Below are positions 22,732-23,859 of a stretch of 64,000 nucleotides of DNA, piece after piece (position 1 is the first letter of the stretch; each line of letters starts with the position of its first letter). Source of the stretch: Escherichia coli (lineage in GTDB: Bacteria; Pseudomonadota; Gammaproteobacteria; Enterobacterales; Enterobacteriaceae); assembly GCF_003334765.1 (NCBI RefSeq), contig NZ_QOWT01000011.1; one strand, given 5' to 3'. The notes under the pieces were generated by a model that worked only from the letters and a program-made list of their open reading frames with translations, searched no databases and had not been told where the DNA came from. Made by a program: the position numbers and the translations under genes.

Positions 22732-23859
22732 TTAACGGCGTCTATAGCCTTCCTCTAGCACCGCCTGTGTTCGAACGAGTTCATCTGCGAGTCGTTTCTC
22801 ATCAGGTAGTTGCATCTTATATTCGCTTGCCAGAACGGTGTTAGGCAAACCTGCCAGAGCATAATGCGCTTCTCCGGCTCCTTTCTCTGCACAGAGAACC
22901 AGACCGATGGGCGGATTTTCATCCGGTAGCGTCCAGTGCTCTTTGGCGTAGTTGAGATACATATTCATCTGTCCGGCATCGCTATAGCTGAATTTGCCCA
23001 CTTTTAGATCGACGATTAGCAGGCAGCGTAAACGGCGGTGGAAAAACAGCAGATCGACACGAAACCAGTTGTCATCAATGCGTAACCTTCGCTGCCGACC
23101 AACAAAGGCAAAATCATCCCCAAGTTCCAGCATGAAATCCATCAGGTGGTTGATCAGCGCCTCCTCAAAATCGGATTCTGAATATTCATCTTTCAATTCC
23201 AGAAATTCGAGCACAAAGGGATCGCGTATCGCCTGTTGCGGAAGAATATGCGTCTCGGCAGGAGCGTGTTGTTGCAGCATGGCTGATTTGTCATGTGACA
23301 GTAGTGTCCGCTCATAAAACTGGGTCGCAATTTGCCGCTCTAGCTGGCGAACAGACCAGCCACAGCGGAGCGTCTCTTTTTCATAAAAGCTGCGGGCGTC
23401 AGCGTTTTTAACGGAAAGTAAACGGACGTAGGTGGACCTGGGCAAGGGGAAAGATTTGGCAGACAGCGTCTGCCAAATCTTTGCCGATGGGAATTCTGCA
23501 GACGGTGTCTGCGGAATTCCCAATGGTGTTAATTCGCCAGACATTGTCTGGCGAATTTCAACATGTTGAAAAAAGAGGTAAAAAAGCCTCATTTGGCGTA
23601 AGTTTTTTGCAGAGAACCCACGCTTATACCTTAGACATAAATCCTTTGATAGTCGCTTGATTAGCTGCGCACCATACGCAGCCCTGGCCTCGCCACCTTG
23701 TTCAAATTCGACAATTCGTCGGCCAATTTCCTGGTACGTCGCGGTCATTAACGCGTTAACGCTACGTACCGTTTCCGTCCGGGCGCTATCGACCAGATGA
23801 ATAATACCGTCGTGGATTTGCTGGTAGCCTGCTGTGGTTCCTTCTGAGAGCGATTCCAT
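22732..23859 (-). CDS. yhcG: DUF1016-family (YhcG-like, PD-(D/E)xK nuclease fold) uncharacterised protein containing three in-frame 13-residue tandem repeats
   Basis: 375 aa ORF; residues about 101-139 read EIRQTMSGELTPL / GIPQTPSAEFPSA / KIWQTLSAKSFPL, encoded by three tandem palindromic DNA units at 23453-23557. Confidence 0.8.
   Translation of the reverse strand: MESLSEGTTAGYQQIHDGIIHLVDSARTETVRSVNALMTATYQEIGRRIVEFEQGGEARAAYGAQLIKRLSKDLCLRYKRGFSAKNLRQMRLFYLFFQHVEIRQTMSGELTPLGIPQTPSAEFPSAKIWQTLSAKSFPLPRSTYVRLLSVKNADARSFYEKETLRCGWSVRQLERQIATQFYERTLLSHDKSAMLQQHAPAETHILPQQAIRDPFVLEFLELKDEYSESDFEEALINHLMDFMLELGDDFAFVGRQRRLRIDDNWFRVDLLFFHRRLRCLLIVDLKVGKFSYSDAGQMNMYLNYAKEHWTLPDENPPIGLVLCAEKGAGEAHYALAGLPNTVLASEYKMQLPDEKRLADELVRTQAVLEEGYRRR
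23453..23557. repeat. Three tandem 27-29 bp dyad-symmetric units with a 39 bp period, inside the yhcG coding sequence
   Basis: gatttggcagac-agc-gtctgccaaatc (23453-23479); gaattctgcagac-ggt-gtctgcggaattc (23491-23519); aattcgccagac-att-gtctggcgaatt (23531-23557). Confidence 0.75.

Follow-up and report, generated by a model that had tools for sequence, protein, structure and literature searches.

The 64,000-nucleotide stretch of Escherichia coli DNA analysed here, which as a whole we call the window (contig NZ_QOWT01000011.1), carries on its minus strand the gene yhcG (22732–23859), a member of the DUF1016/YhcG family (Pfam PF17761 and PF06250, COG4804, PADLOC PDC-S02, PHROG 22762). Comparisons with relatives from many phyla and from viral contigs show that genes of this family keep a near-perfect DNA palindrome, in frame, in the part that encodes a linker of the protein, and that the bases of this palindrome co-vary with three residues of the helix (residues 84–96) ending just before that linker. 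Most likely the palindrome is the predicted duplex-DNA site of the very protein in whose gene it lies; and the explanation taken as a whole—a two-module nuclease with its own in-frame site, autoregulation through that site, a family accessory to restriction–modification (RM) loci, and an orphan copy in the enterobacteria—we regard as rather probable, with appreciable room for doubt. The gene itself was already known; what is new here is the family-wide palindrome and its co-variation with helix 84–96. An earlier note on this DNA had treated the repeat as a curiosity, whereas it proved to be the most informative feature of the gene.

A palindrome maintained inside the coding sequence

For the comparison across the family we used a genome set of 85 genes—80 loci at one genome per species, from many phyla and one archaeon, plus 5 others—and a viral-contig set of 40 distinct genes of 25–62% identity, and counted as palindromes those with at least 9 matched pairs, at most one mismatch, and a loop of at most 4 nucleotides. 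In the genome set the linker-coding part held 92 palindromes in 12.7 kb, as against 17 in the remaining 82.9 kb of the genes (7.24 versus 0.21 per kb), with at least one palindrome in 66 of the 85 genes; 100 synonymous-codon shuffles of the same genes gave a mean of 3.4 and a maximum of 10. The viral set behaved alike, with 32 palindromes in the linker and 5 elsewhere (7.8 versus 0.14 per kb; 31 of 40 genes with at least one) as compared to a mean of 1.35 and a maximum of 5 upon 100 such shuffles. In both sets, then, the linker is 35–55 times denser in palindromes than the rest of the gene, at one to four copies per gene and in most genes a single one. Since the shuffles leave every protein unchanged, the palindromes do not follow from the encoded peptide, and by this criterion the element is maintained at the nucleotide level across many phyla and viral contigs. 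The short peptides found repeated at the same linker in distant homologues are likewise underlain by DNA that is palindromic, with a sequence that differs by lineage.

Two explanations at the level of the protein were rejected. That the palindrome might be a consequence of the peptide motif IxQT[LV]S is ruled out by those same shuffles; and that the linker peptides might be beta-clamp-binding motifs, an idea taken from the synthetic lethality with dnaN considered below, fails because the peptide changes wholesale (QTLSDQ, ATPLPQ, ETVFRK, NSVVEI, HPLGAQ) while the palindrome persists.

The element, 25 bp long with an odd centre and with the consensus ATTnnnCAGACAsTGTCTGnnnAAT, has a sharp boundary, position 12 from the centre being A:T in 98% of the cases and position 13 being paired in 54%; within it positions 2–12 are Watson–Crick paired in 83–98%, with one to four pair types each. 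Changes on both sides were seen in 11 of the 12 pairs, with a covariation score of 0.675 versus 0.18 in shuffles, in an alignment selected for being palindromic, so that the synonymous-codon shuffles constitute the unbiased tests. The reading frame is fixed, the centre falling on a first codon position in 109 of 132 palindromes, and where a gene has several copies the commonest centre-to-centre spacing is 39 nt (15 of 52 cases). The constraint appears to reach the protein as well: a right-arm change from Ser (TCT) to Phe (TTT) goes with a change from G to A in the third base of a left-arm Gln or Glu codon, and the pair at offset 4 was counted as G:C 66 times and A:T 45 times, with 8 mismatches, which association of a replacement with a synonymous change we read as the symmetry of the DNA shaping the peptide.

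In E. coli the in-frame repeat spans 23454–23558 and consists of three units at a 39-nt period, each a near-perfect 25-bp palindrome of this kind, whose core CAGACNNNGTCTG is found at five places in the window where 0.03 would be expected. On the coding strand, copy 1 is ATTCGCCAGACAaTGTCTGGCGAAT (23532–23556), the positional equivalent of the single copy of Salmonella and Citrobacter; copy 2 is ATTCCGCAGACAcCGTCTGCAGAAT (23493–23517), with two mismatched arm positions; and copy 3 is ATTTGGCAGACGcTGTCTGCCAAAT (23454–23478). The two remaining copies are external to the gene: ATTCTGCAGACAcTGTCTGCAGAAT (22692–22716), 16 nt after the yhcG stop codon, in the gap between the convergent nanQ and yhcG; and ATTCGCCAGACAcAGTCTGGCGAAT (29831–29855), just downstream of the gltD stop. 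The yhcG-type palindrome has in the window no copies other than those at the yhcG locus, and the matches listed by BLAST for E. coli genomes fall either within yhcG or in gaps without annotation. The only other match of the scan in the window was an unrelated 25-nt palindrome, GGTGAGCGCGATCATCACGCTCACC, at 58492–58516, with 11 of 12 arm pairs.

That the external copies might be remnants of a duplicated gene segment was rejected, because the similarity ends at the 26–29-nt unit, and the palindromic unit is indeed all that the nanQ-side copy and the internal copies have in common. Nor are the palindromes intrinsic terminators, having no T tract and being missed by the terminator scan; the copy at 22692–22716 is likewise devoid of a T tract and not terminator-like. 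Together the external copies bracket a segment of about 7.1 kb, gltF-yhcA-yhcD-yhcE-yhcF-yhcG, and strain EC28, which is without the whole segment, has between nanQ and gltD a single copy, AAATTCGCCAGACACTGTCTGGCGAATTT (positions 8098–8128 of its locus, L002), which arrangement looks like a deletion by recombination between the two palindromes and less like an empty insertion site. A single unannotated intergenic match is also seen in genomes without a yhcG match, for example that of an ST131 strain.

The number of copies varies from one to four among the alleles of E. coli and its relatives, whose proteins have 349, 362, 370, 375, 382, or 391 residues. The earlier note had spoken of an in-frame repeat insert: the repeat is real, but "insert" is a misnomer, in that one copy is native to the family and the K-12-type allele has amplified it. 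The alleles of 349–391 residues are accordingly copy-number variants of the element and not assembly errors. The copies of Salmonella and Citrobacter stay palindromic through compensatory changes that alter the peptide, with CCG…CGG (Pro, Ala) in the arms where E. coli has CGC…GCG (Arg, Gly). Natural deletion alleles (P0036 of E. coli, 307 residues; P0005 and P0025, 349 residues) have their end points at or next to palindromes, as in the junctions EIRQ|LERQI and ELTPL|PRSTY; the repeats of yhcG may, as the allele comparison suggests, be points of breakage or slippage.

Farther afield, the palindrome of the gene was found repeated exactly, as an additional copy, at two loci: in a Muribaculaceae genome (L075, 129–153), 42 nt upstream of the start codon; and in Filimonas (L077, 11091–11115), 26 nt after the stop, mirroring the post-stop copy of E. 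coli. At four loci a second DUF1016 gene lies 1–9 kb from the first (L025, ~19200–19500; L065, ~3100–3400; L079, 11655–12725; L089, ~13900–14400), and in L025 and L089 its linker has a different palindrome of its own. In L065 the palindrome ATTGTTGCGACACTGTCACAACAAT lies outside the linker, encoding RIVATLSQQL in the helix that matches YhcG residues ~62–75.

Co-variation of a helix with the palindrome, and a proposed binding site

To relate protein to palindrome we took the 98 genes whose site has 10 or more of its 12 pairs matched, their median pairwise identity being 50%, and compared each residue of the N-terminal domain with each position of the half-site. Residues 85, 88, and 89, which lie on one face of helix 84–96, stand out. 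At residue 88 and base pair 8, counted from the centre, K goes with G in 41 of 43 genes, E with C in 23 of 23, and R mostly with G (Fisher p 5e-16 for E88/C); at residue 85 and base pair 6, D goes with G in 21 of 21 and T, S, or R with C in 50 of 51 (p 2e-20 for D85/G); and at residue 89 and base pair 5, R goes with C in 10 of 10 and Q, N, or L with A (p 1e-8 for R89/C). The entropy of the corresponding site position is explained to 70% by residue 88, 77% by residue 85, and 60% by residue 89, the neighbouring residues explaining mostly less than 20% and at most about one third. These tables hold equally for the mirrored arm positions, which are encoded by different codons. The pairing of K or R with G and of E with C at position 8 is the usual chemistry of major-groove contacts; D85 and R89 would be read by the same chemistry only if they contacted the complementary strand.

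Shared ancestry as the sole reason for the association is weakened by neighbor-joining trees made without residues 78–141, on which each trait changed ~6–24 times (a random trait changing 19 times for a class of the size of D85), so that the association does not appear to be the mark of one clade; these trees are, however, crude at 35–50% identity and inflate the number of independent changes. E. coli YhcG, with K85, R88, and Q89, agrees with the C at position 6 and the A at position 5 in all the copies; with the G at position 8 it agrees in copy 1, in copy 3, and in the copy near gltD.

The protein context was obtained from an AlphaFold2 model built on 63 homologues (mean pLDDT 83), in which the N-terminal part comprises helices 7–55, 60–78, and 84–96, then a low-confidence loop at residues ~100–135 (pLDDT ~55 for residues 100–130), and helices 141–197. 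The putative recognition helix is encoded by 23572–23610, on the minus strand, and the linker (residues 101–140) by 23440–23559, also on that strand, which holds the three palindromes. The linker splits the DUF1016_N domain (PF17761; residues 19–184, minus strand 23308–23805; Pfam E 1.3e-36), whose match extends over 166 residues against 137 positions of the model, the excess being due to the repeat-coded linker. In fold searches this domain resembled the DNA-binding domains of ParB and KorB.

From these observations we propose, with strong support, that a YhcG dimer would place helix 84–96 of each subunit in one half-site, where residues 85, 88, and 89 would read base pairs 6, 8, and 5, counted from the centre. 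Binding inside the gene would then act as an autoregulatory operator, a step with weaker support than that of the cognate site: the bound site would stand in the way of transcription as a roadblock and so limit the nuclease-encoding part along with downstream genes such as hsdS, and a potentially toxic nuclease and its control site would be inherited as one cassette. In the relatives embedded in RM loci the nuclease would serve as an accessory effector. A 25-bp specificity is too rare as a restriction-type target in phage DNA, which rarity argues for a site of self-control; and the extra identical copies near the start or the stop in the Muribaculaceae and Filimonas loci, as in E. coli, likewise support the regulatory reading.

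Several observations weigh against this proposal. No palindrome at up to one mismatch was found in 19 of the 85 genes, and 10–20% of the homologues are without a good one; E. coli copy 2 and the nanQ-side copy have no G at position −8. Where a gene has several copies, their middle triplets are often unlike, each copy still being self-complementary, and 143 of the 295 positions that differ between copies of the same gene are doubly compensated, which differences a single dimer specificity does not require and which hint at the use of a hairpin or cruciform, or at homogenisation by template switching; it may also be that only one of the copies is the high-affinity site. Residues 85–89 are encoded ~12–20 codons from the palindrome, so that co-transfer of a short segment could contribute to the association, although such transfer explains neither the pairing of K or R with G and of E with C nor the mirrored half-site. 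The recognition code is a correlation among sequences, and the roadblock is a guess by analogy. Finally, in the only report found on such protection, E. coli B given one metagenomic PDC-S02 gene was not protected against T4, T5, or T7 (preprint 10.1101/2024.09.26.614923).

Whether the proposal extends to the whole family, which numbers over 20,000 sequence clusters from bacteria, archaea, and phages, is a more tentative matter: that DUF1016/YhcG genes are in general self-contained cassettes of a sequence-specific DNA binder, a nuclease, and the binder's own site, with a simple recognition code and with the in-frame operator as control switch of a widespread accessory effector embedded in RM loci, seems to us possible and somewhat less than an even prospect. 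If so, the nuclease could, for example, stay bound to its own gene, or have its expression repressed there, until a phage disturbed the RM systems or the transcription of the host. The preferred reading, if true, would furnish an unusual instance of coding sequence that has retained a protein-binding site in many phyla, with the symmetry of the DNA dictating the peptide; and, if the code holds, the family would offer a natural series of mutually orthogonal DNA-binding modules, each with a site of 25 bp. The cis element, the predicted recognition helix, and the residue–base code together make a nuclease of unknown function directly testable, and its importance rests on that cis element and not on the defence potential of the E. 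coli gene.

The nuclease, its locus, and the alternative explanations

The ATG-started 375-residue reading frame, its translation, and the annotation that RefSeq gives to the identical DNA (yhcG, "PDDEXK nuclease domain-containing protein") agree with one another and, along with the Pfam domains, with the earlier description of a YhcG-like protein with a restriction-endonuclease-like C-terminal fold. The nuclease domain (YhcG_C, PF06250; residues 208–360, minus strand 22780–23238; Pfam E 1.6e-56) is modelled as alpha-beta-beta-beta-alpha-beta. Its catalytic motif (minus strand, 22957–23055) comprises D269 (23053–23055), D284-L-K286 (23002–23010), and G296-Q297-x-x-x-Y301 (22957–22974). In alignments of 25 and of 63 homologues of 35–58% identity, E228, E245, D269, K286, Q297, and Y301 were invariant or nearly so (at least 90%), and position 284 was D or E, so that the possibility raised beforehand of a fold devoid of catalytic D/E…K residues is not borne out. 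The domain is accordingly of the RecB/Cas4-like PD-(D/E)xK nuclease kind, with the complete motif D…(D/E)xK…QxxxY, the QxxxY lying in the helix after the (D/E)xK strand; the motif E…D…(D/E)xK predicted by Kosinski et al. (2005; PMC1189080) for YhcG agrees with our alignments. Fold searches found the domain to resemble Dna2, NucS, Cas4, YraN, and Hjc. The search of the PDB by sequence and by profile detected no relative of YhcG with a solved structure, and that of NCBIfam no family match.

The yhcG DNA of the window is 99.9–100% identical to that of K-12-like E. coli strains, the pig strain PI12 matching the 1451-bp yhcG query at 100%. On one side the gene is followed by the convergent nanQ (22208–22672, plus strand) of nanR-nanATEKQ, and on the other it is flanked by yhcF-yhcE-yhcD-yhcA-gltF-gltD-gltB, as the earlier note had it in describing a solitary gene between the nan operon and the yhc fimbrial genes. 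No methylase or methyltransferase, helicase, or ATPase gene is annotated within 12 kb, which likewise agrees with that note; RM and other defence genes are absent out to 12 kb from the gene in E. coli and out to 8 kb in Salmonella and Citrobacter. In these latter genera the orthologue (76–78% identity) lies directly after gltD on the same strand and is followed by a cytosine/purine-permease-like gene, an amidohydrolase, and the convergent nan operon, the fimbrial genes gltF-yhcADEF of E. coli lying between gltD and yhcG. Because of this shared placement, the enterobacterial yhcG is a long-resident orphan fixed at the gltD–nan junction and not part of a mobile defence island. In the same region, yhcE (24757–25308) is an intact open reading frame of 183 residues in the window and is split by IS5 in the K-12-like comparison record, so that the window would represent a near relative of K-12 and not an IS5-carrying K-12 of that type; and a transcript-mapping study (PMC7967276) reports for stationary phase an RNA, G0-10703, that runs divergently from yhcG and overlaps ~128 nt of its 5' region in antisense, which would place it at window positions 23860–24043 plus the 5' end of the gene.

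If, as one alternative, E. coli YhcG were a housekeeping DNA-structure nuclease aiding replication—at stalled forks, hairpins, or junctions—and not an immune protein, the association of its relatives with defence loci would be a different use of the same enzyme. The sole functional claim that we found for E. coli yhcG points in that direction, namely the synthetic lethality of its deletion with hypomorphic alleles of dnaB, dnaN, and parE (Hu et al., 2009; PMC2672614); and the resemblance of the nuclease domain to enzymes such as Dna2 and Hjc, as well as the synteny in Escherichia, Salmonella, and Citrobacter outside any mobile island, would agree with it. That lethality, however, comes from a single study, and the gene is dispensable and often lost: only 3346 of 5426 complete E. 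coli genomes had a match covering at least 80% of the query, the others having a yhcG with IS1 or another transposase, a truncated one, or no gltF-yhcG segment at all. Moreover, the common K-12-type allele, including that of the window, has Arg at codon 141 (23437–23439), in the motif LPWSxY, at a position occupied by Trp in 99 of 120 close homologues and by Trp or Phe in distant ones; this replacement (W141R) may mean that the common laboratory allele is impaired. A housekeeping role would be compatible with the binding-site model and is silent on the palindrome; on balance we consider it unlikely.

A second alternative would place the function of the palindromes in the yhcG mRNA, as hairpins that slow the ribosome, shield the upstream mRNA against 3'-exonucleases in the manner of REP elements, or bind the nuclease and neutralise it as a cis-encoded RNA antitoxin of the type III logic, in which last instance the loss of transcription during infection would free the enzyme. 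The three E. coli units do fold strongly as RNA (−69.6 versus −30.9 kcal/mol in shuffles, z = −10.6), the covariation is extensive, and copies in the same gene differ while each remains self-complementary; furthermore, type III antitoxin repeats are 34–40 nt long, a range that includes the 39-nt spacing. There is, however, no excess of G.U over A.C, the corresponding G.T cells being rarer than the A.C (18 versus 44), and the central base, usually a single nucleotide in an odd centre, is C in 45% and G in 43% and hence strand-symmetric, with flanks that pair above chance, which features together point to an action as duplex DNA and not as a sense-strand RNA hairpin. Nor do hairpins predict a residue–base code equal in both half-sites; most genes have a single copy, no T tract follows the hairpins, and Rfam gave only chance hairpin matches far below the gathering scores. 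We therefore judge RNA hairpins a distinctly unlikely explanation of the element.

The earlier note had itself proposed a weak candidate for defence, which part of its reading stands for the family. PADLOC, which already lists the family as PDC-S02, so that the idea of a defence candidate was known, matched YhcG with the candidate profile PDLC04807 (2.8e-131, residues 9–370). When the 700 neighbouring open reading frames of the 80 loci were clustered and representatives of the recurrent clusters annotated, at least 39 of the loci had an RM or other defence gene within 7 kb, which figure is a minimum, since the annotation was confined to the recurrent clusters; the absence of any defence association across genomes, considered possible in that note, is thus not what was found. 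The neighbours were HsdM, typically directly upstream, and HsdS, typically directly downstream (15 loci each, the homologue in 15 loci coming directly after hsdM and before hsdS); HsdR (10 loci); a type III methyltransferase (6) and a type III restriction enzyme (5); an HKD+Snf2 helicase (5); SoFic and PDC-S01 (4 each); a second DUF1016 paralogue (3); and QatA (2). Of three short metagenomic contigs (2.0–5.8 kb) carrying distant homologues, on which neighbours were few, L011 had genes for Eco57I/MmeI-type methyltransferases. DUF1016 has been reported as enriched next to inverting hsdS genes (PMC9881135), and a DUF1016 gene has been found in prophage hot spots and in conjugative elements. At the level of the family the cassette is thus an accessory of RM and other defence loci, DUF1016 being among the commonest uncharacterised genes inside such loci, and one of which E. 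coli K-12 carries a copy.

The E. coli copy, a syntenic orphan without a partner, is on these comparisons a candidate only for a defence role. That it might by itself be an active anti-phage or anti-plasmid nuclease, along the lines of the weak candidate of the earlier note, would fit the treatment of PDC-S02 by PADLOC as a single-gene candidate, the intact catalytic motif, and an accessory, patchy distribution in E. coli that is typical of defence genes. Against that proposal stand the lack of defence neighbours here as well as in Salmonella and Citrobacter, the typical position of the relatives between hsdM and hsdS or beside type III RM genes, which suggests a dependence on partners, the failure of the metagenomic homologue against the three phages, and a palindromic specificity of 25 bp that would almost never occur in phage DNA; stand-alone defence by this copy accordingly strikes us as quite improbable.

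Finally, a palindrome without cell function—a tiny self-perpetuating DNA element, corrected by template switching at quasi-palindromes, duplicated by slippage, and tolerated in a disordered linker—would account for a copy number of one to four within E. coli, for the copies outside the gene, for a linker predicted with low confidence, for the individual self-complementarity of each copy, and for the genes that have none, but is very improbable, since the element shows no spread beyond the yhcG locus and unannotated gaps among the window copies and the E. coli BLAST matches listed, keeps its position, frame, 25-bp limits, and ATT and CAGAC blocks in proteins only 25–40% identical, from many phyla and viral contigs, and as passive DNA should not co-vary with residues 85, 88, and 89.

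Comparison with known systems

Membership of the E. coli protein in the DUF1016/YhcG family is without any difference, the match to both Pfam domains and to the PDC-S02 models being full-length. In the literature searched, whose coverage left out most subscription journals, as well as in Rfam, three things were not found: the occurrence of the palindrome throughout the family, its fixed place in the linker-coding region, and the residue–base code.

Among nucleases, YhcG has 8–17% identity to the RecB/Cas4-like enzymes (Cas4 SSO0001, Dna2, MGME1, AddB/AdnAB, RecE) and to NucS, YraN, and Hjc. It differs from Cas4, AddB, and Dna2 in having no four-cysteine Fe-S cluster, the pattern of the Cas4 type not being found among its cysteines (only 75, 166, 279, and 323), and no helicase partner or fusion; and from NucS/EndoMS in a helical N-terminal domain in place of the beta-barrel and in the lack of a C-terminal clamp-binding peptide. 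The cognate methyltransferase that is a feature of type II restriction enzymes is not annotated beside yhcG in the 25-kb region. With the accessory genes embedded in type I RM loci—the anticodon nucleases PrrC and RloC, RhuM, Fic/SoFic, and PDC-S01—the homologues share the place between hsdM and hsdS, SoFic and PDC-S01 being co-neighbours; YhcG, however, shows no sign of sensing anti-restriction proteins, and the E. coli copy is outside any RM locus.

As to the palindrome, the short palindromes of the REP/RAYT systems and of the Rickettsia palindromic elements are likewise in part tandem, in part flanking a gene, and tolerated in frame; but YhcG has by Pfam no HUH domain, its palindrome was seen only at the yhcG locus, with no genome-wide spread, and the position within the gene is fixed and ancient and not scattered. 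From type III toxin–antitoxin systems of the ToxIN kind yhcG differs in having its repeats inside the open reading frame, in a PD-(D/E)xK fold that is not that of ToxN, and in the single copy of most members of the family. The C proteins of type II RM systems, small helix-turn-helix dimers that time or limit the expression of a nuclease from a palindromic operator, offer a parallel to the proposed autoregulation; C-boxes lie, however, in the promoter and the C protein is separate, whereas in YhcG the helix-turn-helix-like domain and the nuclease form one polypeptide and the site falls within the open reading frame.

The nearest likeness is to proteins with binding sites in genes, the known examples being lambda O, with the iterons of ori-lambda between its two domains; Spo0J/ParB, with parS inside spo0J; and PurR, with a roadblock operator inside purB. 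All these are dyad-symmetric sites in one to several copies within a coding region, and in lambda O the sites are furthermore located between the two domains of the binder, so that site and binder are inherited together. No features of a replication origin, such as an AT-rich unwinding region, were seen at yhcG; and, as opposed to lambda O, Spo0J, and PurR, the putative binder is here fused to a nuclease and not to a replication or partition module, and the sites are perfect palindromes of 25 bp.

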